The notes beneath the pieces were generated by a model, which worked only from the letters and a program-made list of their open reading frames with translations, was not told where the DNA came from and did no database searches. A stretch of 64,000 nt of DNA, from assembly GCF_964213995.1 (NCBI RefSeq), contig NC_135808.1, positions 24,552,001 to 24,616,000 of the forward strand. Direction: 5' to 3'. Position 1 is the first letter of the stretch. Every line of letters begins with the position of its first letter. Source of the DNA: Mustelus asterias (taxonomy: Eukaryota). Positions 7,757 to 63,862 of this stretch are shown here, piece after piece. The translations under genes and the position numbers were made by a program.

Positions 7757-8751
7757 CGAAGATCCACTCTGTACCCCAAACATTCAGCGAAAGATCAGAA
7801 CCATCACAAAACACGATTGATGTTAAATCCTGTGGGAATGACAGACCCCAATGGCCAAATTCAGGGAAAACTCTGGGAATTCTGTCTTCCTTAAGGAAAT
7901 TGAGCCCTCCCCCCCGCACCCTCTCCCCTCCCCCCCAGCACCCTCCCCCCCGCACCCTCCCACCTCACCCCCACCCCCCGCACCCTCCCCCCCTCACTCC
8001 CCCGCACCCTCCCCCCCAGCACCCTCTCCCCCTCACTCACCGACTCTCACATCCCCCCTCATTCACCGACTCTCACTCCCCCCTCACTCACCGACTCTCA
8101 CTCCCCCCTCACTCACTGACTCTCACTCCCCCCTCGCTCACCGACTCTCAGTAATTTTTGTCCGTACTCCAGATATTTCCTCAGCCACTCGATACACTCC
8201 ACCTCCAGGTAACGTTTCCATCGCTGGTTAATGACCGTGCTGCCCTCCCACTTTTGTTTGATGATCTCTCCCCAAGGGACGGGGGTCACCCACACCAGAA
8301 GATCCTTATCAAAACTGATGAAATCTAGTCCGTCCCACCCGTACTGGTTGAATCCAGTCGTATTCCCATCATCACTCAGGTCACAGCCGGTCATCAGCTG
8401 GTGTATGTGGATCCCGGTGGATTAGAAAGATAACCTGCCAATCAGGGCCAGTCCCAATAAAAGCCGCACTCACCATGAACCCATCCAAACAGATCCGTTC
8501 CCACTGGAGGTCCAGCCACCACACACACACACACACACACACAGCCAATCTGGCCCAATCCAACTGGAGGCAAAGCCACCAAACACACACAATCAGATTC
8601 AGTCGACCAACAGACCTTACAGAGCTCATGCACAACCTCAGTTAATCAGCCCCCAGTCCCAGATCCTGATCCGCTCCCAGTTTCTCCCACTCTGACCCAG
8701 ACGCCCCGCATCCTGAGAGAGAGGCTGAGTGCTGGGAGAGTGAAGACTCAC

Positions 8752-10367
8752 AAAGAACAAAGAACAATACAGCACAGGAACAGGCCCTTCGACCCGCCAA
8801 GCCCGTGCCGTTCCCTGGTCCAAACTAGACCATTCTTTTGTATCCCTCCATTCCCACTCCGTTCATATGGCTGTCTAGATAAGTCTTAAACGTTCCCCAG
8901 TGTGTCCGCCTCCACCACCTTGCCTGGCAGCGCATTCCAGGCCCCCGCCACCCTCTGTGTAAAATATGTCCTTCTGATATCTGTGTTAAACCTCCCCCCC
9001 CGCCTTCACCTTGAACCTATGACCCCTCGTGAACGTCACCACCGACCTGGGGAAAACCTTCCCACCGTTCACCCTATCTATGCCTTTCATAATTTTATAC
9101 ACCTCTATTAAGTCTCCCCTCATCCTCCATCTTTCCAGGGAGAACAACCCCAGTTTACCCAATCTCTCCTCATAACTAAGCCCCTCCATACCAGGCAACA
9201 TCCTGGTAAACCTCCTCTGTACTCTCTCCAAAGTCCCCACGTCCTTCTGGTAGTGTGGCGACCAGAACTGGACGCAGTATTCCAAATGCGGCCGAACCAA
9301 CGTTCTATACATCTGCAACATCAGACCCCAACTTTTATACTCTATGCCCCATCCTATAAAGGCAAGCATGCCATATGCCTTCTTCACCACCTTCTTCACC
9401 TGTGACGTCACCTTCAAGGATCTGTGGACTTGCACACCCAGGTCCCTCTGCGTATCTACACCCTTTATGGTTCTGCCATTTATTATATAGCTCCTCCCTA
9501 CATTATTTCTACCAAAATGCATCTCTTCGCATTTATCAGGATTGAACTCCATCTGCCATCTCTTTGCCCAAATTTCCAGCCTATCTATATCCTTCTGTAG
9601 CTTCTGACAATGCTCCTCACTATCTGCAAGTCCTGCCAATTTTGTGTCGTCCACAAACTTACTGATCACCCCAGTTACACCTTCTTCCAGATCGTTTATA
9701 TGAATCACAAACAGCAGAGGTCCCCATACAGAGCCCTGCGGAACACCACTAGTCACAGCCGGAAAAAGACCCTTCCACTACCACCCTCTGTCTTCTGTGA
9801 CCAAGCCAGTTCTCCACCCATCTAGCCACCGCCCCCTTTATCCCATGAGATCCCACCTTTTTCACCCGCCTACCATGAGGGACTTTGTCAAACGCTTTAC
9901 CAAAGTCCATATAGACCACATCCACGGCCCTTCCCTCGTCAACCATTCTGGTCACTTCTTCCAAAAACTCCACCAGGTTAGTGAGGCATGACCTCCCTCT
10001 CACAAAACCATGCTGACTATCGTTAATGAGTTTATTCCTTTCTAAATGCGCATACATCCTATCTCTAAGAATCTTCTCCAACAACTTCCCCACCACGGAC
10101 GTCAAGCTCACCGGCCTATAATTATCCGGGTTATCCTTCCTACCCTTCTTAAATAATGGGACCACATTAGCTATCCTCCAATCCTCTGGGACCTCACCTG
10201 CGTCCAGTGACGAGACAAAGATTTGCGTCAGAGGCCCAGCGATTTCATCTCTTGTCTCCCTGAGCAGCCTTGGATAGATTCCATCAGGCCCTGGGGATTT
10301 GTCAGTCTTTATATTCTCTAACAAACCTAACACTTTCTCCCTTGTAATGGAGATTTTCTCCAACGGT
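8752..10367 (-). mobile_element. Young 5'-truncated CR1-clade LINE (RT domain + 3' UTR) in intron 2 of copy A
   Basis: KSPGPDG, YRPVSLTS, YMDFGKAFDKV, GVPQGSV, KFVDDTKL and PHLEYCVQFW motifs; (TTCTTTG)n tail; 4-bp flanking duplication GTGA. Confidence 0.93.
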
Positions 10368-10688
10368 TCACCTCCTGACTGGTTGGTTGGTTCGATACAT
10401 GAGGGTCTGAATATTATCTTTGAGACATCGTGCCCCCTCCTGTGTGAGCTTCTTCTTCTGTTCCCAGGACTCAAGCCCCTCACTCTCCACCATCCACTGC
10501 TCCCGGGGGATCAGCTCCCTCCGATCGCTGTCGTACACAACAAACGGGACACCGTCCACATAACCGACAGCCACAAACTCCGGGAAACCTGGAATTGGAG
10601 TCATTCCCGTGAGGAAACACCGGAGAGAGTGAGACCCTGAAATATGGAGAGAAAGAATTCAGGATAGACACCCTAAAAACACCAACAC

Positions 10689-10692
<4 letters not shown>

Positions 10693-10752
<60 letters not shown>
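10693..10752. repeat. (CA)n microsatellite
   Basis: About 30 perfect CA units. Confidence 0.95.
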
Positions 10753-10756
<4 letters not shown>

Positions 10757-11388
10757 ATCAGGGCATGAACCCCAAAACACTGATTCCAAACTGAGAGCAA
10801 GACCTCCACCCATGCCCCTGTACCCAGCCTGGCATTGCCCCTCTCACACCCCATCACTCACTGACCCAAGGTTAATGCCCCAGTGCCCAGCCTGGCACTG
10901 CCCCTCTCACACCCCATCACTCACTGACCCAGGGTTAATGCCCCAGTACCCAGCCTGGCATTGCCCCTCTCACACCCCATCACTCACTGACCCAGGGTTA
11001 ATGCCCCAGTACCCAGCCTGGCATTGCCCCTCTCACACCCCATCACTCACTGACCCAGGGTTAATGCCCCAGTACCCAGCCTGGCATTGCCCCTCTCACA
11101 CCCCATCACTCACCTGCAGACACCTCTCCACACAGAAGGACCAGCTCTATCAGTCCAATCATTGCTGCTTCCCTCATGTTGAGAGAAACATTTGGAGGAA
11201 ACTCTTTTTCAAAGAAAGGCCATTTTCTCAACTCACTCCTTCTGTCTTTTCCTGTTTACACTGAGCCTCAATCTGATTGGACCCGAAATAGGACTGGACC
11301 AATCAGAATAAAGAGATTCAGTGAGTCATCAGTCTCCGGCAGAATAGACACAAACAGGTTGAGAAACTGCCTCAATGTTGAGAACTGT

Positions 11389-11430
11389 CCAATCAGATAA
11401 ATACAGCTGCTGACATCATCAGTTGCCGGG
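11389..11430 (-). promoter_or_regulatory. X1-X2-Y (SXY-type) module upstream of copy A
   Basis: CCCGGCAACTGATG, overlapping TGATGTCA, 20-nt spacer, then CTGATTGG. Confidence 0.7.
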
Positions 11431-16294: not shown

Positions 16295-16440
16295 TACTGA
16301 CTGAGGTTAATATCTAACCCCGGCACTCCCTGCTCACACCCCATCATCGATCGAAATCACTGCACACAGAGGGACCAGCACATTCCGTTCAAAAATTGTT
16401 GCTTCCTTCACCAGGTTGGGACGGGAAATCTATGGAAAAA
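16295..16440 (-). pseudogene. Decayed orphan class I leader exon plus first intron-1 repeat unit
   Basis: The reverse strand reads gaaggaagcaacaatttttgaacggaatgtgctggtccctctgtgtg...gatggggtgtgag and aligns by eye to exon 1 (gagggaagcagcaatgattggactgatagagctggtccttctgtgtg...gatggggtgtgag). The ATG and donor are lost. Confidence 0.65.
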
Positions 16441-27151: not shown

Positions 27152-30100
27152 TCAGGTACTTGTGGAGGGTCTGGGTGAGGAATCCCCATCATCAGAAGCT
27201 GTTAAAGGAAGAAGAGGTGTTAAAACATTGTTCAACATCAGAGAGACAGAGGCAGAGACTGTGGATATGATAAAGAGAGAATGAGAGAGACAAAGACAGA
27301 CAGACACAGAGGAAGAGGTTCTCACACACCCATACTAACGGTGACACACAGAAGCCCACACACCCACACACAAACGCACGATGCACGCACACGCGCACAC
27401 ACACACACACGCTATATTTGAAACAGAATGAACAATAATGTACACAGTGGCACAGGGACAATGTTTGATGATCAGCTTACTATTTGCAGGATTGTAGTCA
27501 CTCTTCCCTCTCCCTGTAAAACATGGAATGCTCAGTGAGTGACGAGACTGAGAGAAAATCAGAGACAGAGGCTGGAACTCTCGCTCGTACTGAGCCCCTA
27601 CAACACAATTCTGAACCCTCACTCCCACCACAACCCGAGACCCTCACTCCCACCCTGACCCTGGACCCTCACTCCCACCCTGACCCTAGACCCTCACTCT
27701 TAGCTGAGCCCTCACTGATACCCTGAACTCCTCATCCAATTTGAGACCCTTCCCACAATTCTGACACTCCCCCTTTATCATGAGCTCCTAACTGTCCCTG
27801 TCCCCACCCTGCAGCTCTTCCACCCACCCACCACCCCCCCCTCCCCACCCCCACACCAACCTGCGACCCACAGCCTGAGCCACCGACACCCTGGAATACT
27901 CTCCCAGAATCCCTGCCCCCAGTGAGCTGTCATCCGGTGGATCTGACATCCATCATTATGAAATGATTCGAAAGGCTAGTCATGGCACGAATCAATTCCA
28001 GCCTCCCGGACTGCCTGGATCCACTACAGTTCACCCACCGCTCTTTTCCCTCCAATTCCTACCTTTCTTGTTGTAGATGACGACAGCCACAATGATGAGA
28101 GTGATGAGCACGAGGACCCCGACCACAATCCCGACAGTAACAGCAACCTGGGAGCGAGACTTTGGTTCTGTTAGAGAGAGAGAATCAGAGAGACTGAGTG
28201 AATCAGGGAGAGGGAAAAGTGAGAATCAGAGAGAGAGAATGTGAGAGACTGAGTGAATCAGGGAGAGGGATAAGTGTACATCAGAGGGAGACAGAGTGGG
28301 AGAGAATAGGAGACAGTGGGAGAGATAGGAAGAGAAGAGTGGAAGAGAATACGAGAGCGATGGAGAGAGAATGAATCGGAGAGAAAGAAAAAAATCAGAG
28401 AGCGAGAGAGAGAATTAGGAAACACAGGATATACGACACAGAAAACAACCTTTCAGCCCATCCAGCTGATGCTGGTGTTAATGTTCCACCTGAACCTCTT
28501 CCCGTCTTTCCACATCTAATTCCACCATCTTAACTACCTATTCCCTTCTCTCTCAGTGACTTGTCTATCTTCCCCTTAAACTATACTGTTCAGTTCAGCC
28601 ACTCCCTGTGGCAGCGAGCCCCACATTCTCATCACTCTTTGGGTGAAGAGGTTTCATGAATTCCCCACTGGGTTTCTTGGTGAGTATCTTGTATTGATGA
28701 CCTCTTGTTACGATCTTCCCACAAGAGGAGACATTATCTCTGTATCCTGTCTATGAAAACCTTTCAGAATTTTAAATCCTCGATTAGGTCAACCCTCAGC
28801 CTTCTGTTTTCCCGAGAGCAGAGACCCAGCCGGTCAATCCTTTCCTGAGATGTCCACCCACTCATTTCTGGAATCATCTCTGTAAATCTTCTCGACACTC
28901 TCTCCCCTGACTCTATATCCTTTGTATGAAATGGTGACTGGAACTGCACACAATCTCTAAATGTGGTCTAACCAATTTTGATAAAGGTTTAGCAATAACT
29001 TACAATTGTACAAATTGTAATTACTAATGTACAATTCTATCGCTCGAGAAATGAAACCTGGTTTTCTGTTTGTTTTGTTTATAGCCTTGTCTAACCTGTT
29101 ACTGATTGGTGTATTTATCCACCCAGATCCCTTTGTTCCTCAATCCCATCCAGACTGACACCTTCCTCGTAATAAGTGACCTCCTTATCCATCCTTAACA
29201 GAAAACTACCTCACGTTTATCTGTGCTGAACTCCAGACACCAATTATTTGCCCATTCTACAATTTTATTAATGTCCTACGAATTACCTGCAGTTCTCCTC
29301 AATATCAAATAATTCCCCCAATTTGGTGCCATCTGCAAATTAAGAAATGGTATTTTTGATTCCAATATCCAAGTTATGGAGTGTAAGTTGTGAACAGCGA
29401 TGATCCCAGCACTGATCCTTGTGGGACACCATTTCCCACCTTCCGTCACTCTGAATAACTCCCTTTACTCACACTCTCTGCTTTCTGTCTCAAAGTCAGT
29501 GAGTGATCCATTCTGTCACTTATCCCTAACTCCACATTCTCTGACCTTATCCATTCGTCTATCACCAGTCACCTTATCGATTTCATTTGAAAAATCATAT
29601 TAAATTACATCCATTACATTACCATTGACTCCTCCCTCTGTTACATCCTCACAAAATTCACAAAGTGGAGTAAAATAAGATTTTCCATTTCAAAATCCAT
29701 GCTGATGATTCATTGTTATGTTATTTGATTTCTAGATTTTCATGAATTCTCTCCAATAGAAGGAGTTCCATTATTTTTCTGAAACTCTGATTTAATCTGA
29801 CTGAAGTAAACTTCCAGGATGCACTGGGCTTTGTTGTACTGTAATATCCCAGGATGCACCGGGCACTGTTGTACTGTAATAATGATGTGGAGCTGCCAGT
29901 GTTGGACTGGGGTAAGCACAGTAAGAAGTCTCACAACACCAGGTTAAAGTCCAACAGGTAGCAGAAGCCACAAGCTTTCGGAGCACTGCCCCTTCATCAG
30001 GTGAGTGGGAGTTTTGTTCACAAACAGGGCATATAAAGACACAAACTCAATTTACAAAATAATGGTTGGAATGCAAGTCTTTACAGCTAATCAAGTCTTA

Positions 30101-36100: not shown

Positions 36101-36520
36101 TGGGAGAATATCTAGGGGGTGGACTGGGAGATGGACTGGGAGCAACTTTGGTGAGGGCAGAGACATGAACCTTCTTGATCCTTCCTGCACAGCTCACAGG
36201 TTGCTATTGTCACAGGAAGTTTAGATTTCTTGATGCACGTGGTGTATTCCTCCAAACCCTCCCTCTCTCGGTCTCTCTCTTAACTCTCCAGCCTCATGTC
36301 CCTGCCCTTATTTCCCTCACAATCTACAATTTTGCTCCTTCTACAGACCCAGTACCCAGTCAGATATTGTTCCTCTCACACCCCATCACTCACTGACCCA
36401 GGGTTAATGCTCCAGTACCCAGCCTGGCATTGCCCCTCTCACACCACATCGCTCACCTGCAGACACCTCTCCACACAGAAGGACCAACTCTATCAGTCCA
36501 ATCATTGTTGCTTCCCTCAT
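27152..36520 (-). CDS. MHC class I heavy chain, nonclassical-looking (copy B); join(36520-36457,34318-34058,33521-33249,32806-32543,28167-28063,27513-27481,27198-27152), 348 aa
   Basis: Seven GT-AG exons of 64/261/273/264/105/33/47 nt, all phase 1, giving an open frame. Motifs: GSHSLRYF, N86 sequon NQT, alpha2 Cys pair, Ig-C1 alpha3 (LSCAVTGFYP...YSCRVEH), hydrophobic TM, tail GRGKSDYNPANTSDDGDSSPRPSTST*. Confidence 0.92.
27929..28039 (+). mobile_element. About 111-bp internal Rex/Babar-like RT fragment in intron 5 of B; also 63886-63996 (minus) in D
   Basis: Translates HPVDLTSIIMK*FERLVMARINSSLPDCLDPLQF. Confidence 0.65.
28063..28167 (-). CDS. Copy B exon 5 (connecting peptide + TM)
   Basis: EPKSRSQVAVTVGIVVGVLVLITLIIVAVVIYNKK. 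Confidence 0.88.
29882..32262. mobile_element. Penelope-like retroelement, two divergently oriented halves forming a long inverted repeat, in intron 4 of copy B
   Basis: RT YIDD motif on the minus strand near 31010; GIY-YIG endonuclease (NVVYLIRC...WYIGET...RQQMNEH) on plus in 31224-31922 and on minus in 30444-30920; inverted termini ATGATGTGGAG...CTCCACATCAT. Confidence 0.9.
29968..30004 (-). ncRNA. Minimal hammerhead ribozyme motif
   Basis: TCAC-CTGATGA-A-GGGGC-AGT-GCTCC-GAAA-GC-TT-GTGG. Confidence 0.68.
32543..32806 (-). CDS. Copy B exon 4 (alpha3, Ig C1)
   Basis: VAPVVSFTRLGDSTRLSCAVTGFYPQP...YSCRVEHSG. Confidence 0.92.
33249..33521 (-). CDS. Copy B exon 3 (alpha2)
   Basis: IHVFQMMTGCELSDDG...ECIEWLRKYLKYGQKLLRV. 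Confidence 0.92.
34058..34318 (-). CDS. Copy B exon 2 (alpha1)
   Basis: GSHSLRYFLTGMTPIPGFPEFVVVGYVDD...SRTNQTG; tttcag acceptor and gtgagt donor. Confidence 0.92.
34325..34650. repeat. About 45-bp tandem repeat at the 3' end of B intron 1
   Basis: Unit (ag)n-acatcagggtgtgaaccccaaaacaccaacaccc. Confidence 0.9.
34811..35300. repeat. 33-bp minisatellite in B intron 1
   Basis: Unit gatgacctgtctcactggcagggtgtatccggg. Confidence 0.9.
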
Positions 36521-39822: not shown

Positions 39823-42800
39823 ATGAGGGAAGCAGCAATGATTGGACTGATAGAGCTGGTCCTTCTGTGTGGAGAGGTGTCTGCAGGTGAGTGATGGGGT
39901 GTGAGAGGGGCAATGCCAGGCTGGGTACTGGAGCATTAACCGTGGGTCAGTGAGTGATGGGGTGTGAGAGGGGCAATGCCAGGCTTGGTACTGGGGCATT
40001 AACCCTGGGTCAGTGAGTGATGGGGTGTGAGAGGGGCAATGCCAGGCTGGGTACTGGGGCATTAACCCTGGGTCAGTGAGTGATGGGGTGTGAGAGGGGC
40101 AATGCCAGACTGGGTACTGGGGGATTATCCCTGGGTCAGTGAGTGATGGGGTGTGAGAGGGGCAATGCCAGGCTGGGTACTGGGTTTCTTAAAGGAGGGA
40201 AACTGGGATGTGAGGAAAATGAGAGCAGGGACGTGGGATTGGAGATCGAGGAGCGAGACAGAGAAAGGGAGAGGTTGAAGCATTACAGGAACAGGAGGGG
40301 AATAATCTAAACTCCATTTTCTGCATCCCCACAAAAATCCATCTCAATTTTGAAAGCTGCAATTGATCCACAACAGCTGCAGCTTCTTGCGGGAAAGAGG
40401 ATTTCAGATTTCCACAACCATTTTGGTGAGGAGGTTCCTGGCTGAAGACAGCAGGCAGCAACCAGGAAAGAGAGAGTGAGTGTAGATGAATAGCAGAGAC
40501 TGGTTAAAGGCTTCAGTAAGAAGTCTCACAACACCACGTTAAAGTCCAACAGGTTTATTTGGTAGCAAATACCATAAGCTTTCGGAGCGCTGCTCCTTCA
40601 TCAGATGGAGTGGAAATCTGCTCTCAAACAGTGCAAACAGACAGAATCAAGTTGCAGAATACTGATTAGAATGCGAATACTACAGCCAGCCAGGTCTTAA
40701 ATGTACAGACAATGTGGGTGGACGGAACATTAAACACAGGTTAAAGAGATGTGTATTGTCTCCAAACAGAACAGCTCGTGAAATTTTGCAAGTCCAGGAG
40801 GCAAGCTGTGGGGGTTACTGATAATGTGACATAAATCCAACATCCCGGTTTAGGCCGTCCTCATGTGTGCGGAACTTGGCTATCAGTTTCTGCTCAGCGA
40901 CTCTGCGCTGTCGTGTGTTGTGAAGGCCGCCTTGGAGAATGCTTACCTGAAGATCCAAGGCTGAATGCCCATGACTGCTGAAGTGCTCCCCCACAGGAAG
41001 AGAACAGTCTTGCCTGGTGATTGTCGAGCGGTGTTCATTCATCCGTTGTCGTAGCGTCTGCATGGTTTCCCCAATGTACCATGCCTCGGGACACCCTTTC
41101 CTGCAGCGTATCAGGTAGACAACGTTGGCCGAGTTGCAAGAGTAGGTGCCGTGTATCTGGTAGATGGTGTTCTCACGTGAGATGATGGCATCCGTGTCGA
41201 TGATCCGGCACGTCTTGCAGAGGTTGCTGTGGCAGGGTTGTGTGGTGTCGTGGCCATTGTTCTCCTGAAGGCTGGGTAGTTTGCTGCGGACAATGGTCTG
41301 TTTGAGGTTGCGTGGTTGTTTGAAGGCAAGAAGTGGGGGTGTGGGGATGGCCTTGGCGAGATGTTCGTCTTCATCAATGACATGTTGAAGGCTCCGGAGG
41401 CTCCACTCCATCTGACGAAGGGGCAGCGCTCCGAAAGCTTATGGTATTTGCTACCAGATAAACCTGTTGGACTTTAACCTGGTGTTGTGAGACTTCTTAC
41501 TGTGTTCACCCCAGTCCAACGCCGGCATCTCCACATAAAGGCTTCAGCAACAGTGCACGATTAGAGAGAGAGAGAGCAGCAGAAGTATAGTGTCATAGAA
41601 TCCCTGCAGTGCAAAAGAAGGCTATTTAGCCCATCGAATCTGCACTGAGAACAATCCCACCTGGGCCCTATTCCCGTAACCCCATGTATTCATCCTACTA
41701 ATCATCTTGACACTAAGGGGCAATTTAGCATGGCCCATCAACCGAACCCGCACATCTTTTGAATGTGGGAAGAAACCGGAGAACCTGGAGGAAACCTACG
41801 GGGAGAACGTACAAATTCCACGCAGACAGTCACCCGAGGCCGGAATTGAACCCGGGTCCCTGGTGCTATGAGGCAGCAGTGCTAACCACTCTGCCACCGT
41901 GCTACCCATATAATCAGACCCAGTAAAAGACTCCCAGCAGCAATGCATGAATAGCGAGAGAGTGTGTGTAAAGGAATAGCACAGGCCTAGTTAGGGACTC
42001 CAGCGCAATGCACAATTGGAGAGTGATGGGGAGGGAGGAGAAATCAGACCTGGCTGGAGACTCCAGCATTTCTACAATTCCTTAGCTGATGTCCTGAGGA
42101 AGATTCTGGATGACTGGAGTCTTTTCAGCCTAAGTGACTTCAACAATGTGTTGGGACAGACAGTGATCATGGCCATTGTGCCTCGGTCATCACGGTGTGA
42201 GCAAGATCATCGATAATTATATTTGACCGAATGCATGGGACTTCTATGCTGAGGACTCTCAGGGGAACTGTATTGTGGAAGCACATCACTGCACCAATAC
42301 CTCTGGTGGGTCTGTTGTGCGAGTCAGACAGTTATATCCAGCTTCTAAGCACCTTCTGGAGCTTTGCCATCTGAATGAACTCTCCATCACCAACACTTAC
42401 CCCCAGGGCAAACATTGCCTCAAAGTATCGTGGCATCGCTCAAGGTGTAACCCTGGCACCAACTAGACCTGCGTAATCAAGAGGAGACACAATCTGCCCA
42501 GCTTTCTCCACACCCACACCAAGCACAGAGCAGATTGTGATAGTGCCCACTGTCCTGTCCGTCGCAGTGTGAAACTGCATCCCTGAATAATTCACAGTCC
42601 CAAACACCATGGCCTGTCGCGTGTTAATGGGTTCGTACCCTGATGTCCCTCTCTGTGTGGGTGTTGATGGTTAGGGGTTCAAATCCTGATATCTGTGTGT
42701 CAGCGTTTTTAGGGTGCATATCCTGAATTTCTCTCCCTCTCTGTTTTTCAGGCTCTCACTCTCTGCGGTATTTCCTCTCGGGAATGACCCCGGTCCCCGG

Positions 42801-45800
42801 TTTCCCAGAGTTTGTAGCTGTCGGTTATGTGGACGATGTCCAGTTTGTTGTGTACGACAGTGATCGGAGGGAACTAATCCCCCGGGAGCAGTGGATGGTG
42901 GAGAGCGAGGGGCTTGAGTCCTGGGAGCGGAAGAAGATGCTTGTACAGGAGCAGGAACGGTATTCCAAAGCCGATATTCCGCTCTTCATGTCTCGGGCCA
43001 ACCAGTCAGGAGGTGAGTGCTCACTCTCCCACAACTCTGGGATCAAGTTGGTCAATGTGGCTCCTCCCAGTGTAGTTGGCATTGATTGGCTGTGTGTGTG
43101 GTGCTCCCAAGTGACACTGTCTCTGATTGGTTGTTTGTGTTTCTGATCCACAGGGATCCATGTCTACCAGACGATGACTGGCTGTGACCTGAGGGATGAT
43201 GGGACCACGAGTGGATTCAACCAGTTTGGGTGGGACGGAAAAGATTTTATCAGCTTTGACAAGGATCACATGGTGTGGGTGACCCCGATCACATGGGGAG
43301 AGATCATCAAAAACAATTTGGACAGGGACATAGCCAACAGCAAGGGATGGAAAAGTTACCTAGAGGGAGAGTGTATCGAGTGGCTGAAGAAATATCTGGA
43401 GTATGGACAGAGAGAACTGAGAGTTGGTGAGTTGGTAAGTGAGAGATGAGATGCCCGGGACTCTCTATCTCAAGGTTCCTGTACTGACTCCTCTTTCTTT
43501 CTCTCTCAGTTGCCCCCGTCGTGTCCTTTACCCGCCTGGGTGATTCTAACCAGCTGTCCTGTGCCGTCACCGGGTTTTACCCTCAAGCCATCGAGGTGAA
43601 TCTGTGGAGAGACGGAGTGGTGATTGATGAGACTCTGTCCAGTGGGATCTTACCCAATCACGACAGCACCTACCAGATCCGGAAATGGGTAGAGTTTGAT
43701 CCAGAGGACCAGGCCGAGTATTCCTGTCGGGTGGAACACAGCGGGATGAAGGAGACACTGGTGGTGATTTACGGTAAGACTGTTTCTCACTGTTAGAGAG
43801 GACACAGCCTCAGGCCAGGATCACAAGAGGGAGGGTCAGTGCTGAGCCTGAGACCCAGGATACAGAGAATGGGAAATAAATATTAATCTTCAATACTTTA
43901 TTTATCATGGCGCTACCTTTAGAGGACAGTAATTGTGTGTCCAGGGATTTAATGTGAAATGTGCCCCTATTATTTGGCTACTAATTCAAACTCTTTGCAA
44001 ACATTTCAGTTTAGTCGGACAAAGGACAGAAGCCGAGTCTATTCCACTTAATAATCTATTTAACACTTTAAGTACCAAACTCAAACTTACAACAGTTGCA
44101 ACATTTTAACTCTTTTTGTGGACATTAATTCTTTAACTGAACATTAATTCTCATTCCTTAACTGCAAACAGATATTCTAATCCTTTAACTGGAAATAGAT
44201 ATGTCCTGGTTTAGAGTAAAATGTCTGTTCCCGATGTAGAACTTTCCTCAGCGTCTTTCTCTGAAGATGTTCTGCAGGGTACACTTCTTGCGATGGTTGA
44301 TCTCTGGAGTTATTGCTGGAAACAAAGGGCTGACGTGTGCCTTTACCCCCAAAACTGTTCTCACTTTCCAGAAAATTCTGTAACACCCAGCCAATGGTGT
44401 AACTGGGAACTGATCATGTTGCTCGACCAAGCCAATGAATTACTTGTAACCGATTCCACAATGCTCACTCAAGCCTGCATGCAGGACACATAGCTTATCC
44501 TCTGTCGGTGCCATCAGGTCTAACTCAAAGTAAACAACTTCCCATATTTGGTCAGTACAGGAACTAGAACAAGGAACAGGCCCTTCGGCCCTCCAAGCCT
44601 GCACTGACCATGCTGCCCAACTTAACTAAAACCCCCTACCCTTCCGGGGACCATATCCCTCTATTCCCAAAGAACAGTGTCAGGTCACAGTTCACCGGGC
44701 AGACCACATCAAGAACAGCTTTACGACCTGCATCTGTTTTTAAATATAAGTTGACCAAAAATCTCAGCATGCTTAACCCTCTGCCAGAATCACACTTAGC
44801 GCCATTATTGTTGTTAAAGAACAACTGCAATAATGATTTTATCTGTCTGCACCCCATTGTATCCTGGGATATTACAGGTGAAAGGGCACAGAGTATCCTG
44901 GGATATTACGGTGCAACAGATTCCAGTGTATCCTGGGAAATTATAGTACGTCACACTGCAGTGTATCCTGGGAAATTACAGGAGGGGTAGGGCCCAGAGT
45001 ATCCTGGGACATTACAGTGCAACACAATCCAGTCGATCCTGGTGTATTACAGTGCGCCAGGATCCAGTGACTCGTGAGATATTTCAGGAGGGATGGGGCT
45101 TGGTGTATCCTGGAATATTACAGCATGACAGGGCCCAGTGCATCCTGGGAAATAACAGGAAGCACAGGAACCATTGTATCGATGGATATTACAGTAAGAC
45201 AGGGCTGTGTATCATGAGCTATTATAGTTGGTCAGGGTGCAGTATATCTGGGATATTACAGCCTGACAGGACATGGAGTATCCTGGGATGTTACAGTATG
45301 ACAGGATGCAGTGTATCCTGGGATATTACTGGATGACGGGACTCAATGTCTGTTGGAATTTTAGAGAAGGGACAGGGCCTGGTGTGCTTGGGATTTCAGA
45401 GGAGGGATAGGACCTGGTGTATTGGGATATTGCAGGATGGCAGGGCCCAGTGTCTGCTGTGATATTACAACCTGAGAGGACCCAGTGTGCCCTGGGATGT
45501 TATATTAGGACAAGGCCCAGTGTATCCTGGGATATTACAGTAGGATAGGACCCAGTGCATCCTGGGAGTTTACTTCAGTCAGCTTCAGATCAGAGTTCAG
45601 AAAAATAACTCCTTCTATTGGAGAGAATTCATGAAAATCTAGAAATCAAAAAATATAACAATGAATAGTCAGCATGGATATTGAAATGGAAAATCTTGTT
45701 TTTCTCCACTGAGTGGATTTTTTGAGGATGTAACAGAGGGAGGAGACAATGTAATAGATATAATTTAATATGATTTTTCAAATGTAATCGATAACATAGC

Positions 45801-48202
45801 TCATGATAGATTAATGAATCGGGTCAAAGAATGTGGATTTAGACGATAAGTGACAGAATGGATTGCTCGTTGACTTTGAGACAGAAAGCAGAGAGTGTGA
45901 GTAAAGGGAGTTATTCAGAGTGATGGAAGGTGTTCCACAAGGATCAGTGCTGGGATTACTGCTCTTCATGCTTTACACTCACTGATTTGGACATTGGAAT
46001 CAAAATAAAATTGACCAATTTGCAGATGACACCAAATTGGGGGAATTATTTAATACTAAGGAGAACTTCAAGAAATTAATAGGACGTTAATAAACTTGTC
46101 GAATGAGCAAATAATTGGTGAATGGAGTTCAGCACAGATGAATAAGACGTAGTTTTCTGTTAAGTGACCTCCCGATACATCCTTATTACGAGGAAGGTGC
46201 AGGTCTGGATGAGGTTGAGGAGCAAAGGTGTACAAATACACCAATTAGACACAGGTTAGACAAGGCCATAAACAAACCAAACGAAAAACCAGGTTTCATT
46301 TCTTGATGGATAGGATTGTCAAATATGGACGTTATTTGTAAACCTGTATGAAACCTACATTATAGCACATTTAGAGTACCATGTGCAGTTCCAGTCACCA
46401 TCTCATACAAAGGATATAGAGTCAGGGGAGAGAGTGTGGAGAAGATTTACAGAGATGATTCCAGAAATGAGTGGGTGGAAATCTCAGGAAAGGATTGACC
46501 GGCTGGGTCTCTGCTCTCGGGAAAACAGAAGGCTGAGGGTTGATCTAATCGAGGTCTTTAAATTTATGAAAGATGTTTTATAGATCAGACACATGGAGAA
46601 TGTTTCCTCTTGTGGAAAGATCATAACAAGGTCATCAATACAAGACAGTCACCAAAAAATCCAATGGGCAATTCAGGAGAAACCTCTTTACCCAGAGTGG
46701 TGAGAATGTGAGCTCACTACCACAGGGAGTGGCTGAACTGAACAGTATAGTTTAAGGGGAAGATAGACAAGCAAATGAGGGAGAAGGGAATAGAGTTAAA
46801 ATGGTTGTTTTAGATGAGGAAAGATGGGAGGAGGCTCAAGTGGAACATAAATACCAGCATCAACTGGATGGGCTGAATGGCTGGTTTCTGTGTTGTATAT
46901 CCTGTGTTTCCTGATTCTCTCTCTCTCTAATTCATTCTGTCTCATTTTTCTTTCCCGTTTTATGGGCGGCACAGTAGCACAGGGGTTAGCACTGCTGCCT
47001 CACAGCACCAGGGACACAGGTTCGATTCCCGGCTTGGTCACTGTCTGGATGGAGTTTGCATGTTCTCCCCGTGTCTGCGTGGGTTTCCTCCGGGTGCTCT
47101 GCTTTCCTCCCACAGTTCAAAGATCCACTGGTTAGGTGGATTGGCCGTGCTAAATTGCCCCTTAGTGTCAGGGGGTTTGCAGGTTAAATACATGTTACAG
47201 GGATAGGGCATAGATGGGATTGTTGTCAGTGCAGACCTGATGGGCCGAATGGCCTCCGTCTGCACTGTCGGGATTCTATGATTCACTCTCACATTCTCTG
47301 CCTCTCTCATTCTCTTTTTCCCCCTCTCTGCTTCTCACTTTTCCCTCTCCCTGATTCACTCAGTCTCTCTGATTCTCTCTCTCTAACAGAACCAAAGTCT
47401 CGCTCCCAGGTTGCTGTTACTGTCGGGATTGTGGTCGGGGTCCTCGTGCTCATCGCTCTCATCATTGTGGCTGTCGTCACCTACAACAAGAAAGGTAGGA
47501 ATTGGAGGGAAAAGAGCAGCTCCTCACTGGGGGGAGGGATTGTGGGAGAGTATTCCAGGGTGGGGGTGGCTCAGGCTGTGGGTCTCAGGTTGGTGTGGGG
47601 GGGGGCACAGAGTGGGTGGAAGAGCTGCAGGGTTGGGATAGGAAGGGTAAGGGGCTCATGATAAAGAGGGAGTGTCTGAGAATTGTGGGAAGAGTCTCAG
47701 ATTGGATGAGGAGCTCAGGGTATCAGTGAGGGGCTGAGGTCAGTGTGGGAGTGAGGGTCTAAGGTCAGAGAGAGGGTCACTGGCAAGGGCAAAGTGAGGG
47801 TCTTAGGTTGTGGTGGGAGTGAAGGTTCAGAATTGTGTTGTCGGGGCTCAGTGCGAGCGAGAGTTCCAGCCTCTGTCTCTGATTTTCTCTCAGTCTCGTC
47901 ACTCAATGAACATTCCATGTTTTACAGGGAGAGGGAAGAGTGACTACAATCCTGCAAAGAGTAAGCTGATCATCAAACATCATCTGTATCTCTGTGTAAT
48001 GTGTGAATCATTGTTCATTCTGTGTCAAATATACTCAACCAAATGGTGTGTGTATGTATGTGTGTGTGTCTCTTTCTCTATGTATCTATATCTTGTGCAC
48101 AGTCTCTGTCTCTCTGATAATGAACAGTTTTTAATGTCTCTCCCTCCTTTAACAGCTTCTGATGGTGGGGATTCCTCATCCAGCTCCTCCACGCGTTCCT
48201 GA
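39823..48202 (+). CDS. MHC class I heavy chain, nonclassical-looking (copy C); join(39823-39886,42752-43012,43154-43426,43510-43773,47390-47494,47928-47960,48156-48202), 348 aa
   Basis: Same exon sizes and phases as B, canonical splice sites and an open frame. Tail is GRGKSDYNPAKTSDGGDSSSSSSTRS*. Confidence 0.92.
40572..40608 (-). ncRNA. Minimal hammerhead ribozyme motif
   Basis: CCAT-CTGATGA-A-GGAGC-AGC-GCTCC-GAAA-GC-TT-ATGG. Confidence 0.7.
41408..41444 (+). ncRNA. Minimal hammerhead ribozyme motif (Penelope pLTR)
   Basis: CCAT-CTGACGA-A-GGGGC-AGC-GCTCC-GAAA-GC-TT-ATGG: core boxes, stem I, stem II and palindromic AGCT stem III. Confidence 0.7.
41594..41907 (-). mobile_element. HE1-like V-SINE
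   Basis: Full head, core and tail. Confidence 0.8.
42060..42620 (+). mobile_element. Decayed RTE-clade LINE endonuclease remnant
   Basis: FYNSLADVL...SDFN and LLELCHLNELSITNT...KVSW...WHQLDL resemble APE motifs of RTE elements. Confidence 0.55.
42752..43012 (+). CDS. Copy C exon 2 (alpha1)
   Basis: GSHSLRYFLSGMTPVPGFPEF...SRANQSG. Confidence 0.92.
43154..43426 (+). CDS. Copy C exon 3 (alpha2)
   Basis: IHVYQTMTGCDLRDDG...ECIEWLKKYLEYGQRELRV. Confidence 0.92.
43510..43773 (+). CDS. Copy C exon 4 (alpha3, Ig C1)
   Basis: LSCAVTGFYPQAIEVNLWRDG...YSCRVEHSG. Confidence 0.92.
44855..45570. repeat. Degenerate tandem repeat in intron 4 (also 61720-62150, and flanking the Penelope in B)
   Basis: Recurrent gtgtatcctgggatattacag. 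Confidence 0.75.
45600..46905 (+). mobile_element. Old decayed CR1 in intron 4 (paralogous at about 28420-29770 on minus and about 62190-63470 on plus)
   Basis: QFQSPSHTKDIESGERV...RRLRVDLIE present in B, C and D. Confidence 0.7.
46963..47282 (+). mobile_element. HE1-like V-SINE in intron 4 of C
   Basis: Full head, core and tail. Confidence 0.82.
47390..47494 (+). CDS. Copy C exon 5 (TM)
   Basis: EPKSRSQVAVTVGIVVGVLVLIALIIVAVVTYNKK. Confidence 0.88.
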
Positions 48203-58607: not shown

Positions 58608-58828
58608 CTGATTGGACAGTTCTCAATATTGAGGCAGTTTCTCAACCTGTTTGTGTCTATTCTGCCGGAGACTGATGACTCACTGAATCTCTTTATTCTG
58701 ATTGGTTTAAATCCTATTTTGTGTCCAATCAGATTGAGGCTCAGTGTAAACAGGGAAAGACAGAAGGAGTGAGTTGAGAAAATGGCCTTTTGTTTGAAAA
58801 AGAGTTTCCTCCAAATGTTTCTCCCAAC
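58608..58828 (+). promoter_or_regulatory. Copy D proximal promoter: Y box, AP-1-like TGACTCA (58676-58682) and further CCAAT boxes; X boxes missing
   Basis: Homologous to 11178-11401. Upstream of the Y box it joins sequence homologous to about 11717 onward. Confidence 0.55.
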
Positions 58829-59234
58829 ATGAGGGAAGCAGCAATGATTGGACTGATAGAGCTGGTCCTTCTGTGTGGAGAGGTGTCTGCAGGTGAGTGA
58901 TGGGGTGTGAGAGGGGCAATGCCAGGCTGGGTACTGGGGCATTAACCCTGGGTCAGTGAGTGATGGGGTGTGAGAGGGGCAAAGCCAGGCTGGGTACTGG
59001 GGCATTAACCCTGGGTCAGTGAGTGATGGGGTGTGAGAGGGGCAATGCCAGGCTGGGTACTGGGGCATTAACCCTGGGTCAGTGAGTGATGGGGTGTGAG
59101 AGGGGCAATGCCAGGCTGGGTACTGGGGCATTAACCCTGGGTCACTGAGTGATGGGGTGTGAGAGGGGCAATGTCAGGCTGGGTGGAGGCCTTGCTCTCG
59201 GTTTGGAATCAGTGTTTTGGGGTTCATGCCCTGA

Positions 59235-59265
<31 letters not shown>

Positions 59266-62200
59266 TGGTGTTTTTAGGGTGTCTATCCTGAATTCTCTCT
59301 CTCTCTATTCCAGGCTCTCACTCTCTCCGGTATTTCTTCACGGGAATGACTCCGATCCCGGGTTTCCCGGAGTTTGTGGCTGTCGGTTATGTGGACGGTG
59401 TCCAGTTTGTTTTGTACGACAGCGATCGGAGGGAGCTGATCCCCCGGGAGCAGTGGATGGTGGAGAGCGAGGGTCCGGCAGCCTGGGAGCGGAAGAAGGA
59501 TCTCGCACAGGAGCAGGAGATGTACTCCAAACTTACTATTCCACTGCTCATGACCCGCACCAACCAGACAGGAGGTGAGTGCTCACTCTCCCAGCACCCT
59601 GGATCCAGGTGGGAATGAGGAGAAACCCAGAGTGGATCAGGAACCGGGAGCCAGAGGCTGATTGGCTGCGATTGGAGATGTGACAAGAAATGTGATTGGC
59701 TGTGAATGTGTGGAGGGATTGTTTCCAGGGAGGTCTGGCTCTGATTGGCTGTGTGTGAGGGGGGGGGGGGGCAGAGTACTTGATGTTGATTGGCTGGTAG
59801 GATGAGATCGCCCAGTGAGACTAGTTCTGATTGGCTGTGCAGGTGGGATCGCCCATTGGGACTGTCTCTGATTGGCTGTTTGTGTTTCTGATCCTTAGGG
59901 ATCCATGTTTACCAGCTGATGACTGGCTGTGACCTGAGGGATGATGGGACCACGAGTGGATTCAACCAAAGGGGATGGGACGGAGATGATTTTATCAGCT
60001 TCGACAAGGATCACATGGTGTGGGTGACCCCGGTGCCCTGGGGAGAGATCACCAAAAACAAGTTGGACAGGAGCACAGTCGACATTCAGCGATGGAAACA
60101 TTACCTGGAGGTGGAGTGTATCGAGTGGCTGAGGAAATACCTGGAGTACGGACAGAAAGAATTGAGAGTCTGTGAGTGAGGGGGGAGTGAGAGTTGGTGA
60201 GTGAGGGGGGGGAGTGAGAGTCGGTGAGTGAGGGGTGAGTGAAAGTCGGTGAGTGAGGGGGGGAGTGAGAGGCGGTGAGTGAGGGGGGAGTGAGAGTCGG
60301 TGAGTGAGGGGGGAGTGAGAGTCGGTGAGGGAGGGAGGGAGCGAGAGTCGGTGAGTGAGGGGGGAGTGAGAGTCGGTGAGTGAGGGGAGTGAGAGTCGGT
60401 GAGTGAGGGGGGAGTGAGAGTCAGTGAGTGAGGGGGGAGTGAGAGTCGGTGAGTGAGGGGGGAGTGAGAGTCGGTGAGTGAGGGGGGAGTGAGAGTCGGT
60501 GAGTGAGGGGGGAGTGAGAGTCGGTGAGTGAGAGGGGAGTGAGAGTCGGTGAGTGAGAGGGGAGTGAGAGTCGGTGAGTGAGGGGGGAGTGAGAGTCGGT
60601 GAGTGAGGGGGGAGTGAGAGTCGGTGAGTGAGGGGGGAGTGAGAGTCGGTGAGTGAGGGGGGAGTGAGAGTCGGGGAGTGAGAGTCGGTGAGTGAGGGGG
60701 GAGTGAGAGTCGGTGAGTGAGGGGGGAGTGAGAGTCGGTGAGTGAGGGGGGGTGAGAGTCGGTGAGTGAGGGGGGAGTGAGAGTCGGTGAGTGAGGGAGG
60801 AGTGAGAGTCGGGGAGTGAGAGTCGGTGAGTGAGGGGGGAGTGAGAGTCGGTGAGTGAGGGGGGAGTGAGAGTCGGTGAGTGAGGGGAGTGAGAGTCGGT
60901 GAGTGAGGGGGGAGTGAGAGTCGGTGAGTGAGGGGGGGTGAGAGTCGGTGAGTGAGGGGGGAGTGAGAGTCGGTGAGTGAGGGGGGAGTGAGAGTCGGTG
61001 AGTGAGGGGGGAGTGAGAGTCGGTGAGTGAGGGGGGAGTGAGAGTCGGTGAGTGAGAGTCGGTGAGTGAGAGTCGGTGAGTGAGGGGGGAGTGAGAGTCG
61101 GTGAGTGAGGGGAGTGAGAGTCGGTGAGTGAGGGGGGAGTGAGAGTCGGTGAGTGGGGGGGGGTGAGAGTCGGTGAGTGAGGGGGGAGTGAGAGTCGGTG
61201 AGTGAGGGGGAGTGAGAGTCGGTGAAGGGGGTGATGCCGGGACTCTTATCTCGAGGTTCCTGTACTGACTCCTCTTTCTTTCTCTCTCAGTTGCCCCCGT
61301 CGTGTCCTTTACCCGTCTGGGTGATTCTAACCGGCTGTCCTGTGCCGTCACCGGGTTTTACCCTCAAGCCATCGAGGTGAATGTGTGGAGAAACGGAGTG
61401 ATGATTGATGAGACTCTGTCCAGTGGGATCTTACCCAATCACGACAGCTCCTACCAGATCCGGAAATGGGTCGAGTTTGATCCAGAGGACCAGGCCGAGT
61501 ATTCCTGTCGGGTGGAACACAGCGGGATGAAGGAGACACTGGTGGTGATTTACGGTAAGACTGTTTCTCACTGTTAGAGAGGACCCAGCCTCAGACCAGG
61601 ATCACAGGAGGGAGGGTCAGTGCTGAGCTGTCAACCCAGGATATATAGAGAGGGAAATAAATCTTATTCAATGCGTTATATATCATGGTTCCACAGTGCA
61701 ACATGATACAGCGTATCATTGGATATTGGGATCGCACTGGACCTGGTGTAACATTGGACACAAGAGTAGGTCTGGGCCTGGGGTATTCTGGGATATTACA
61801 GTATGGTGGGGCCCAGTGAACCCTGGGATATTGCAGTAGTACAGACCGTGGTATATCCTGAGATACTCTCGTAGGACACATCCCAGTGAACCCTGGGATA
61901 TTGCAGTAGTACAGACCGTGGTGTATCCTGAGATATTCTCGTAGGACAAAAACCAGTGTATCCTGGGATGTTGCAGTGTGTCAGGGTCTGGTGTATCCTG
62001 GGATATTACAGGAGGTTGGGCACCGTGGAATATCAGAGGATGGAGAGAGCCTGGTGTATCCAAGAAACAATGCTTTTCACTGTGTACCAATACATGTGAC
62101 AATAATAAATCACATCAAATATTACAGTAGGACTGGACCCAGTGCATCCTGGAAGTTTACTTCAGTCAGATTAAGATCAGTATTCAGAGAAATAATGGAA

Positions 62201-63862
62201 TTCCTTCTATTGGAGACAATTCATGAAAATCTAGAATCAAATACTATAACAATGAATATTCAGCATGGATTTTGAAATGGAAAATCTTGTTTTACTCCAA
62301 TTAGTGGATTTTTTGAGGATGTAACAAAGGGAATAGACAATGGTAATGTAATAGATATAATATCATATAATTTTTTTAATGTAATAGAAAAGGGGGTTCG
62401 TGATGGACTGATTGACAAGGTGAAAGCATGTGGAGTTAGGGGATGAGTGACAGAATGGATCACTCACTGACTTTGGGACAGAAAGCAGAGAGTGTGAGTA
62501 AAGGGTGTTTCAGAGTTACAGAAAGTGTTCCACAAGGATCAGTGCTGGGATCACCGCTGTTCACAAGTTACACTCCATAACTTGGATATTGGAATCAAAA
62601 ATACCATTTCTTAATTTGCAGATAACATCAAATTGGGAGAATTATTTGATTTTGAGGAGAACTGGAATAAATTAATAGGACATGAATAAACTTGAACAAA
62701 TAGTTGGTAAATAAAGTTCAGCACAGTTAAACGTGAGGTATTTTTCAGTTAACGATGAATAGGGAGGGTTGAGGAACAAAGGGATCTTGATGTACAAATA
62801 CACCAATCAGTAAACATAGAGTTACAGGTTAGACAATAAACAAAATACAATCGAAAACCAGGTTTGATTTCTCGAGGAATAGAATTGTAAAGTAGTGATT
62901 TTATTGCTAAACCTGTATCAAACCTTGGTTAGACCACATTTAAAGACCGTGTGCAGTTCCGGTCACCATTTCATAAAAAGGATATAGAGTCAGGGGAGAG
63001 AGTGTAGAGAAGATTTACAGAGATGATTCCAGAAATGAGTGGGTGGACATCTCAGGAAAGGATTGACCGGCTGGGTCTCTGCTCTCGGGAAAACAGAAGG
63101 CTGAGGGTTGACCGAATCGAGGATTTAAAATTAGGAAAGTTTTTTTTATAGGCCAGACACATCGAGAGTGTTCCTCTTGTGGGAAGAGCATATCCAGTGG
63201 CCATCAATACAAGAAACCCAATGGGGAATTCATGAGAAACCTCTTCACCCAAAGAGTGATGAGAATGTGGAGCTCGCTGCCACAGGGAGTGGCTGAACTG
63301 AACAGTATAGTTTAAGGGGAGGATAGACAAGCAAATGAGGGAAAGGGGAATAGAGTTAAAATGGTTGAATTAGATGAGGAATGATGGGAGAAGGCTCAAG
63401 TGGAACATAAATACCAGTATCAACTAGATGGGCCGGAAGGCCATTTTCTATGTTGTATATCCTGTGTTTCCTGATTCACTTTCACTCTGATTCTCTCTCA
63501 CATTTCTCTTTCTTTCACTCTGATTCACTCTTTCATTCTGTCTCTCTGATCTTTCTCTGTCTCTCATTCTCTCTCTTCCTCACTCTTAGTTGCTCATCCT
63601 CTCTCTCATTCTCTCCCACTCGCTCACATTCTATTTCTCTCTGAGTCTCACTGTTCCCTCTCCCTGATTCACTCAGTCTCTCACATTCTGTCTCTCTGAT
63701 TCTCACTTTTTTCTCTCCCTGACTCACTCAGTCTCTCTGATTCTCTCTCTCTAACAGAACCAAAGTCTCGCTCCCAGGTTGCTGTTACTGTCGGGATTGT
63801 GGTCGGGGTCCTCGTGCTCATCGCTCTCATCATTGTGGCTGTCGTCATCTACAACAAGAAAG
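58829..63862 (+). CDS. MHC class I heavy chain (copy D), 3'-partial; join(58829-58892,59314-59574,59899-60171,61291-61554,63758-63862); cytoplasmic exons beyond the window
   Basis: Five exons of 64/261/273/264/105 nt, GT-AG, with an open frame through the TM exon. Confidence 0.9.
58893..59184 (+). repeat. 63-bp tandem repeat at the start of intron 1 (also 10812-11113, 36345-36456 and 39887-40183)
   Basis: Unit gtgagtgatggggtgtgagaggggcaatgccaggctgggtactggggcattaaccctgggtca. Confidence 0.95.
59314..59574 (+). CDS. Copy D exon 2 (alpha1)
   Basis: GSHSLRYFFTGMTPIPGFPEF...TRTNQTG. Confidence 0.92.
59899..60171 (+). CDS. Copy D exon 3 (alpha2)
   Basis: IHVYQLMTGCDLRDDG...ECIEWLRKYLEYGQKELRV. 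Confidence 0.92.
60163..61230 (+). repeat. About 25-bp G-rich minisatellite filling intron 3 of D (also 32870-33257 in B and 8030-8150 in A)
   Basis: Unit gagagtcggtgagtgaggggggagt. Confidence 0.95.
61291..61554 (+). CDS. Copy D exon 4 (alpha3, Ig C1)
   Basis: LSCAVTGFYPQAIEVNVWRNG...YSCRVEHSG. Confidence 0.92.
63758..63862 (+). CDS. Copy D exon 5 (TM)
   Basis: EPKSRSQVAVTVGIVVGVLVLIALIIVAVVIYNKK. Confidence 0.88.

Follow-up and report, generated by a model that had tools for sequence, protein, structure and literature searches.

The closest described relatives of the genes reported here are the elasmobranch MHC-Ib genes UBA, represented by nurse shark AAC60347 and horn shark AAC60348 (Bartl et al. 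1997, cited in PMC12562908), described as derived from UAA (PMC12562908), and located in a cluster (PMC10751288) in which the published genes have c4 and rxrb as flanks. Classical UAA, as set out in section 5 of PMC10751288, is a single gene linked to TAP/PSMB. The Xenopus XNC/mhc1-uba genes also form a tandem class Ib expansion with copy-specific grooves (PMC12562908), but that expansion is independent and the name 'uba' is common by nomenclature only.

The window analysed here, a 64,000-nucleotide stretch of the Mustelus asterias genome (NC_135808.1, positions 24,552,001 to 24,616,000), contains four class I copies, designated A to D. Genes B, C and D are intact members of UBA, a nonclassical, multicopy lineage of elasmobranch MHC class I genes, and gene A is a broken member. 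Their exons, in window coordinates, are as follows.

8142..8414, minus strand: gene A alpha2 exon; acceptor CG instead of AG, no alpha3 or transmembrane exon after it
10372..10636, minus strand: gene A alpha1 exon; 265 bases, 4-base insertion near the end; C7, S59, K63
11114..11177, minus strand: gene A leader exon
27152..27198, minus strand: gene B last coding exon (cytoplasmic 2, stop)
27481..27513, minus strand: gene B cytoplasmic exon 1
28063..28167, minus strand: gene B transmembrane exon
32543..32806, minus strand: gene B alpha3 exon
33249..33521, minus strand: gene B alpha2 exon; Y116, I143, I146, W147
34058..34318, minus strand: gene B alpha1 exon; F59, K63
36457..36520, minus strand: gene B leader exon
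39823..39886, plus strand: gene C leader exon
42752..43012, plus strand: gene C alpha1 exon; S59, K63
43154..43426, plus strand: gene C alpha2 exon; F116, I143, N146, L147
43510..43773, plus strand: gene C alpha3 exon
47390..47494, plus strand: gene C transmembrane exon
47928..47960, plus strand: gene C cytoplasmic exon 1
48156..48202, plus strand: gene C last coding exon
58829..58892, plus strand: gene D leader exon
59314..59574, plus strand: gene D alpha1 exon; A59, K63
59899..60171, plus strand: gene D alpha2 exon; R116, T143, K146, L147
61291..61554, plus strand: gene D alpha3 exon
63758..63862, plus strand: gene D transmembrane exon
L049:436-495 and 739-831, just past the window end: the two gene D cytoplasmic exons

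The alpha1-3 regions of genes C and D are identical to the NCBI models P0083 and P0079, respectively. A preliminary description of this DNA had counted four copies; B, C and D stand as intact genes, but A is a pseudogene, which rules out four working genes. Gene A carries its 4-base insertion ahead of the alpha1 donor and a dead alpha2 splice acceptor, and its resemblance to intact relatives ends at about position 7946. No alpha3 exon was found for it within the window or in the 10 kb beyond it, and a genome-wide alpha3 search gave no match between C8:24538317 and 24584544.

Phylogenetic analysis with IQ-TREE (n=32 taxa, a set with the UCA, UDA, UFA and UGA lineages outside the trees) grouped B, C and D with nurse shark UBA in a single clade, with UFBoot values of 100 for alpha1-3 and 98 for alpha1+2. 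FastTree grouped all 21 copy types, A included, with this Gici-UBA reference (P0084 = O19479 = AAC60347; UBA label from the PMC10751288 supplement) to the exclusion of UAA-like sequences (support 0.898). Identity of B-D to Gici-UBA amounts to 59–65% in alpha1, 64–67% in alpha2 and 76–82% in alpha3, versus 53–57%, 57–60% and 43–44%, respectively, to the dogfish class I protein P0110. When compared by eye with the reference sequences aligned in the PMC10751288 supplement, the alpha3 domains of the window fit the UBA row and not those of UCA, UDA, UFA or UGA. The genes had been suspected to be nonclassical and close to UAA/UBA, as is now supported, but their lineage had been left unassigned. That the remodelled groove marks a new or unassigned lineage is not supported: the genes lie inside a described lineage with a bootstrap of 100. 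A new lineage is rejected on the tree, the reference residues and the consistent synteny; the window reveals none, and UBA had been named previously.

Classical class Ia genes are marked by tight linkage to TAP1/2 and PSMB8/9, broad allelic polymorphism and ubiquitous expression, and their products keep nine anchor residues, namely Y7, Y59, R84, F/Y123, T143, K146, W147, Y159 and Y171. These are incomplete in every copy (6/9 in A, 6/9 in B, 5/9 in C and 7/9 in D), which excludes classical UAA alleles. Likewise, about 55 copies situated 17–20 Mb from the UAA-like genes at 41.6–42.4 Mb do not conform to the single-gene arrangement of UAA. Y7, R84, Y159, W167 and Y171 are mostly common to shark UAA and the window genes, whereas UAA has Y59, E63, T143, K146 and W147. 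Shark UAA (6lup) is also the closest solved structure: it shows 59% identity to the paralog P0003 and was the top match of its AlphaFold model (pLDDT 82), with a target-normalised TM of 0.88.

Residues were numbered on the HLA-A2/shark alignment of the PMC10751288 supplement and on structure 6lup, and the positions previously assigned by eye were all reproduced. Thus, position 59 is S/F/S/A in A/B/C/D and K63 is present in all four; positions 143/146/147 read I-K-W in A, I-I-W in B, I-N-L in C and T-K-L in D; position 116 is Y/Y/F/R; Y7 occurs in B, C and D (C7 in A); and R84, N86, F123, Y159, W167 and Y171 are found in 4/4. The nurse shark reference has F59, K63, L123, I143, R146 and F159. 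The described lineage into which the genes fall already shows F59 and K63 in this reference, an outcome previously named as counting against the reading first proposed. The window copies share with Gici-UBA the loss of Y59, K63 and, commonly, I143 and an altered 146. Within the cluster, K63 was present in 51/51 alpha1 exons and Y59 in 0/51, and C101, C164, Q96 and D122 were invariant in 16/16 de-duplicated intact copies. Because the K63 codon is AAG in all 51 exons, with no synonymous change, its constancy within this genome partly reflects shared ancestry. The argument for K63 retention is carried by cross-species data and not by this genome alone: K63 without Y59 was found in 21 of the 61 aligned non-Mustelus proteins, from 13 shark/ray species including two rays. 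Exceptions among UBA-clade proteins are S63 in P0090 and P0094 and L63 in P0098, and Heptranchias P0032 combines K63 with Y59. The Y59 loss and K63 are an old trait of the UBA lineage, neither new nor local. A literature search found no study of K63 in class I.

The UBA cluster comprises 55 alpha2 loci at C8:21.6-24.75 Mb, 36 of them with open alpha1-alpha3 exons and canonical splice sites and 19 broken or partial; the intact copies represent 16 distinct types at 97.5%. It consists of UBA genes only and is separate from both the class Ia region and the UDA/UEA cluster; other class I types lie outside it at 28, 31–33.6, 35, 40 and 41.6–43.4 Mb. On one side of the cluster, at 20.30 and 21.07 Mb, lie exons of the C3/C4 family that may come from either paralog; on the other, at 26.06 Mb, lies an RXR AF1-like exon (a weak match, E 8.9e-4). 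These flanks are consistent with the c4/rxrb setting published for UBA, where a multicopy cluster separate from class Ia is bordered by complement and RXR genes. Segmental blocks are repeated at 97–99.97% identity over 1.5–4 kb, introns included, in line with the recent expansion that had been proposed; some of the 99–99.97% copies could be uncollapsed haplotypes. Taken together, the expansion is recent and the groove remodelling old.

Diversification of the groove had also been predicted, and a comparison of dN/dS at groove and non-groove codons had been suggested; selection was assessed in the 16 de-duplicated intact copies. The alpha1 domain is under positive selection: the M8a versus M8 comparison gave a 2dL of 39.4, with an omega of 3.35 at 17% of sites, and of the 11 sites under selection, 8 face the groove (Fisher p 0.0006). 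A recombination artefact did not reproduce this signal, the maximum in 30 mosaic-tree simulations (one recombination scheme) being 16.1. The alpha2 domain is only weakly selected (M1a/M2a p 0.26; M8a/M8 p 0.038; 7 of 11 selected sites groove-facing), and the alpha3 control gave a 2dL of 2.2. Selected floor positions include 9, 24, 95, 97 and 116. Pairwise counting (Nei-Gojobori) yielded a groove dN/dS of 1.03 with a wide error, noisy for alpha2 and not decisive, compared with 0.34, indicative of purifying selection, at non-groove alpha1/alpha2 sites.

Amino acid identity among B, C and D is 69–80% in alpha1, 71–80% in alpha2 and 91–94% in alpha3, and 96–100% in the transmembrane segment; the near-identity of alpha3 and transmembrane regions reported for all four copies therefore holds for B, C and D but not for A, which is without either. 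The four-fold-site distance is 0.054 in alpha3, versus 0.171 in alpha1 and 0.214 in alpha2, and the old groove of locus L039 is joined to an alpha3 just 1.9% from those of B-D. Purifying selection alone is rejected as the source of the alpha3 likeness because four-fold sites are 3–4 times closer there and the L039 alpha3 differs so little; alpha3 appears instead to have been homogenised by DNA exchange. Neither the site-level selection nor the alpha3 homogenisation figures appear in the UBA literature text examined.

On balance, we favour the reading that B-D and the broken A belong to UBA, a lineage whose products probably associate with beta2-microglobulin and probably present peptide-like ligands without the classical N-terminal anchor. 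What Y59, residue 63 and W167 do in pocket A has been described (PMC10439229, PMC2193201), and on a UBA pocket geometry taken from HLA, the absence of Y59 would weaken the amino-group network of pocket A and may open that end of the groove. A lysine substituting for E/N63 where pockets A and B meet would take away the group that accepts the peptide backbone NH, and would place a positive charge at the site of the free amino group. Favoured ligands might thus be N-blocked, N-extended or acidic at P1/P2, or K63 itself might fill the site. The non-standard N-terminal anchoring previously put forward is a reasonable inference for the whole UBA lineage. A literature search found no ligand, binding or structural data for any UBA.

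Mouse H2-M3, a class Ib binder of N-formyl peptides, also has a rebuilt pocket A with a positive residue near the ligand N-terminus, His9 in its case (PMC2193201), but M3 alters W167 and Y171, both retained in UBA, whereas UBA alters 59 and 63; the likeness would be one of functional analogy, with no orthology. A bolder proposal, which we regard as improbable, is that the lineage-wide K63 and Y59 loss, kept in sharks and rays, mark out a class Ib pocket specialised for microbial peptides that are N-terminally blocked (formyl/acyl) or N-extended. It would be the shark equivalent of H2-M3, reached by a different route and here diversified under positive selection into at least 16 specificities that cover C-terminal anchors by gene number and not by alleles.

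Other readings of the groove were weighed. UBA copies might present anionic or carbonyl metabolites of small size, or the head groups of lipids, with K63 as a fixed lysine in contact with the ligand, and so work in the manner of MR1 and not of a peptide binder. An invariant lysine at the A/B pocket border beside small A/S59, T99 and hydrophobic L45/L66 would suit this, several UBA-clade proteins are named 'MHC class I-related gene protein-like' by NCBI, and MR1 chains ranked high in the fold search. However, those names are automatic, the MR1 matches score under shark UAA, and R84, Y7, Y159 and Y171 are mostly retained. The reactive K43 on the groove floor of MR1 corresponds roughly to HLA position 45, where 36/36 intact copies have L or V. 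Selection along the entire alpha1 helix (9-80) fits an elongated, varied ligand, and we consider the metabolite reading unlikely.

The copies could instead mainly engage germline receptors, whether NK-type or chemosensory, as their ligands or as decoys, with helix variation tracking receptors or pathogen evasion proteins and not bound ligands; expanded class Ib families with roles of this kind are known in mammals (the M10 family). The selected sites do include 65, 76, 151 and 158, presumably upward-facing, but they are significantly enriched in groove-facing positions in both domains, the floor among them, and we give this account little credence. An expansion largely due to neutral drift in a region that duplicates in segments, with most copies decaying and groove differences due to relaxed constraint, would agree with the broken or partial loci, the duplication of entire blocks and the pairwise groove dN/dS of about 1. 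It seems very unlikely, however, given an alpha1 site class with omega above 3 that holds up against M8a as well as against the mosaic simulations, the constraint at non-groove sites and the 36 of 55 loci that retain open alpha1-alpha3 exons.

Returning to peptide-like ligands, the favoured arrangement would combine a fixed, altered N-terminal pocket with copy-specific central and C-terminal pockets. With C-terminal specificity fixed in each copy, breadth would come from gene number and not from alleles, while birth-and-death turnover and DNA exchange would hold alpha3, the transmembrane segment and the tail alike. Genes B, C and D, together with the residue pair 59/63, are ready candidates for refolding and elution. 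UBA has been known since 1997; the copy set of this window separates its apparently fixed N-terminal pocket from the positively selected central and C-terminal walls.

Four MHC class I heavy-chain genes, set among LINE fragments and minisatellites, are located in G000:C8:24552001-24616000 (C8 being contig NC_135808.1, to which all Mb positions refer). Genes B (minus strand) and C (plus strand) each comprise leader, alpha1, alpha2, alpha3, TM and two cytoplasmic exons, with AG/GT splice sites wherever inspected, and the final two exons of gene D (plus strand) fall directly beyond the window edge. B, C and D are intact. The remaining gene of the preliminary description, A (minus strand), is a pseudogene with four bases inserted where alpha1 ends, a CG alpha2 acceptor and residue C7; no alpha3 or TM of gene A was found within the window or in the 10 kb that follow. 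The same broken gene recurs at 22.94 and 23.36 Mb.

In A, B and D, a 25-base minisatellite begins at the alpha2 donor, with 5, 15 and 42 copies, respectively; C lacks it and has an intron of 83 bases there. The similarity of A to intact relatives stops just beyond this minisatellite, at the boundary between groove and alpha3, which have different histories. In intron 1 of A, C and D, a 63-base repeat of about five copies starts at the leader donor site.

Repeats in the class I genes (window positions)
8028-8150, 25-base minisatellite, gene A (minus strand)
32873-33257, 25-base minisatellite, gene B (minus strand)
60163-61225, 25-base minisatellite, gene D (plus strand)
10812-11113, 63-base intron 1 repeat
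39887-40184, 63-base intron 1 repeat
58893-59184, 63-base intron 1 repeat

Within 300 bases upstream of the leader ATG, all four window genes share a block of a TGACTCA element followed by ATTGG (inverted CCAAT), which resembles the X2-Y part of an MHC promoter; the upstream sequence of gene C otherwise differs.

HLA numbering was taken from the published HLA-A2/shark UAA/UBA alignment (PMC10751288, supplement file 10, parts 97-98). So numbered, all earlier residue calls, including Y59 loss and K63 in the four copies, are correct, and the groove feature is real and was accurately seen. Of what we take to be the nine anchor residues, 6 are retained in B, 5 in C, 7 in D and 6 in A.

In a 32-taxon tree, B, C and D share a clade with nurse shark UBA (AAC60347), horn shark AAC60348 and ray proteins (UFBoot 100 for alpha1-3, 98 for alpha1+2), and all 21 copy types fall in the UBA clade of an 83-sequence FastTree phylogeny. 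The consulted portions of PMC10751288 describe a cluster of multicopy UBA genes only, separate from the class Ia region, between c4 and rxrb; here, C3/C4-family exons (20.30 and 21.07 Mb) lie on one side of the cluster and an RXR AF1-like exon (26.06 Mb; a weak match, E 8.9e-4) on the other, with UAA-like genes at 41.6-42.4 Mb. The window genes are thus further members of the already known UBA lineage, an assignment that we hold to be nearly certain. A recent nonclassical expansion near UAA/UBA had been proposed; the expansion stands, but the lineage is already named, as a class Ib family that derives from UAA and has expanded (PMC12562908, in the part consulted, citing Bartl 1997), and its Y59 loss and K63 are old.

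Outside the cluster, a solitary class I gene (L054, G000:C8:27.97 Mb) groups among UAA-like sequences; it keeps Y7, Y59, R84, K146 and W147, carries S143 and S167, and no UBA-type alpha3 was found within ~13 kb. On the same contig, a UEA/UCA-type alpha2 and alpha3 pair at G000:C8:3662445-3663101 lies ~27 Mb from the cluster of that type (31-33.6 Mb).

Searches with alpha1, alpha2 and alpha3 exons, whose counts are lower bounds, placed the UBA cluster at C8:21.6-24.75 Mb, with at least 55 alpha2 loci, 51 of them outside the window; all 55 were retrieved. Intact loci, defined by open alpha1-alpha3 exons with AG/GT sites alone, number 36 of 55. The 51 alpha1-bearing loci form 21 groups at 97.5% identity, 16 of which include an intact member. 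Block copies of window genes are 97-99.97% identical over 1.5-4 kb, introns included (94-97% for gene B and locus L017), which argues that copy number owes much to very recent segmental duplication; some copies could be uncollapsed haplotype.

Every one of the 36 intact loci has K63 and W167, and none has Y59 (position 59: A 24, S 6, F 5, N 1); T99 is found in 34 and E163 in 30, and positions 70, 77, 116, 146, 147 and 152 vary freely. Nine of the 36 (L008/L014/L027 groups) carry C147, several together with C95, as unpaired cysteines near the F pocket. Another subtype (L006, L010, L022, L034, L042, L052) keeps K63 and open exons but also lacks Y7, R84, the N86 sequon, Y159 and Y171 (I7, L84, Q86, L159, F/S171), with a far more hydrophobic groove.

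We aligned 67 homologues, most partial, fused and isoform entries being left out. K63 occurs in 22 of 61 proteins not labelled Mustelus, 21 of which, from 13 species including Pristis and Hemitrygon, lack Y59 (one as a gap); Y59 is present in 32 of 39 non-Mustelus proteins without K63, and three UBA-clade proteins lack K63. This distribution indicates that Y59 loss with K63 is an old UBA signature common to sharks and rays, predating this expansion. The remaining K63 protein, P0032 of Heptranchias perlo, combines K63, T99 and E163 with Y59, T143, K146, W147 and a UAA-2-type alpha3; the tree of alpha1+2 places it as the sister of UBA (UFBoot 69). It is a possible intermediate, which suggests that K63 preceded Y59 loss.

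Divergence at four-fold degenerate sites is 0.054 for alpha3 vs 0.171 for alpha1 and 0.214 for alpha2, and alpha3 domains cluster mostly by taxon. The groove of L039 groups with Stegostoma P0090 (UFBoot 100) and differs from B-D by 29-31%, vs 1.9% in alpha3. Alpha3 has probably been homogenised by gene conversion or exon exchange, so that its near-identity would not date the grooves. L039 and L044 (G000:C8:23.745 and 24.43 Mb) represent a UBA subtype that carries F59, T143 and W146 and has one extra codon in alpha2, its groove orthologous to P0090 and Hemiscyllium P0094 (both S63) and its alpha3 probably homogenised locally.

Selection was analysed in 16 intact, de-duplicated copies. Pairwise dN was 0.38 at the 41 codons that we take as groove-facing, as against 0.13 for the rest of alpha1/alpha2 and 0.03 for alpha3; groove dN/dS by pairwise counting was 1.03, with wide error. 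The codon models that we fitted ourselves (F3x4, FastTree topology, scaled branch lengths) gave alpha1 2dL values of 37.5 (M1a/M2a), 50.9 (M7/M8) and 39.4 (M8a/M8) and put 17% of sites in a class of omega 3.35, with selection at positions 9, 24, 35, 57, 65, 67, 70, 73, 76, 77 and 80. The alpha2 values reached only 2.7, 12.6 and 4.3 (omega 1.5), and alpha3 showed no signal (2dL 2.2). Groove-facing codons make up 8/11 selected sites in alpha1 (p 0.0006) and 7/11 in alpha2 (p 0.001). In 30 simulations of the null on mosaic trees of four segments, 2dL never exceeded 16.1. Given these models and this null, the expected nonsynonymous excess at groove codons is borne out for alpha1 and equivocal for alpha2.

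An AlphaFold model of paralog P0003 (pLDDT 82.2) adopts the class I fold, with shark UAA (6lup) as top match; the alpha2 disulfide cysteines and Q96/D122, which we take to be beta2m contacts, are invariant in 16/16 copies. In HLA, according to the portions consulted of PMC10439229 and PMC2193201, Y7, Y171 and, via water, Y59 hold the free amino group, residue 63 at the A/B border bonds the P2 backbone NH, and W167 shuts the groove end, with displaced Y59 opening pocket A. Thus, a small residue for Y59 together with Lys for E/N63 would be expected to disfavour a free N-terminus, and may favour blocked, extended or acidic ligand starts. Selected walls with variable positions 116, 143, 146 and 147 may give each copy its own specificity.

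Taken as a whole, UBA membership with an altered N-terminal pocket and copy-specific specificity is the reading we consider fairly probable. That the copies present metabolites as MR1 does seems unlikely to us, as does, equally, a role as receptor ligands; neutral decay of duplicated copies is less likely still. Literature searches turned up no work on UBA ligands or on K63, though the two Almeida papers may contain such analysis, and the consulted portions of PMC6523485 and PMC1513397 added nothing. The interest of the window genes, which is modest, lies in the alpha1 selection signal and in a testable hypothesis of the altered pocket.
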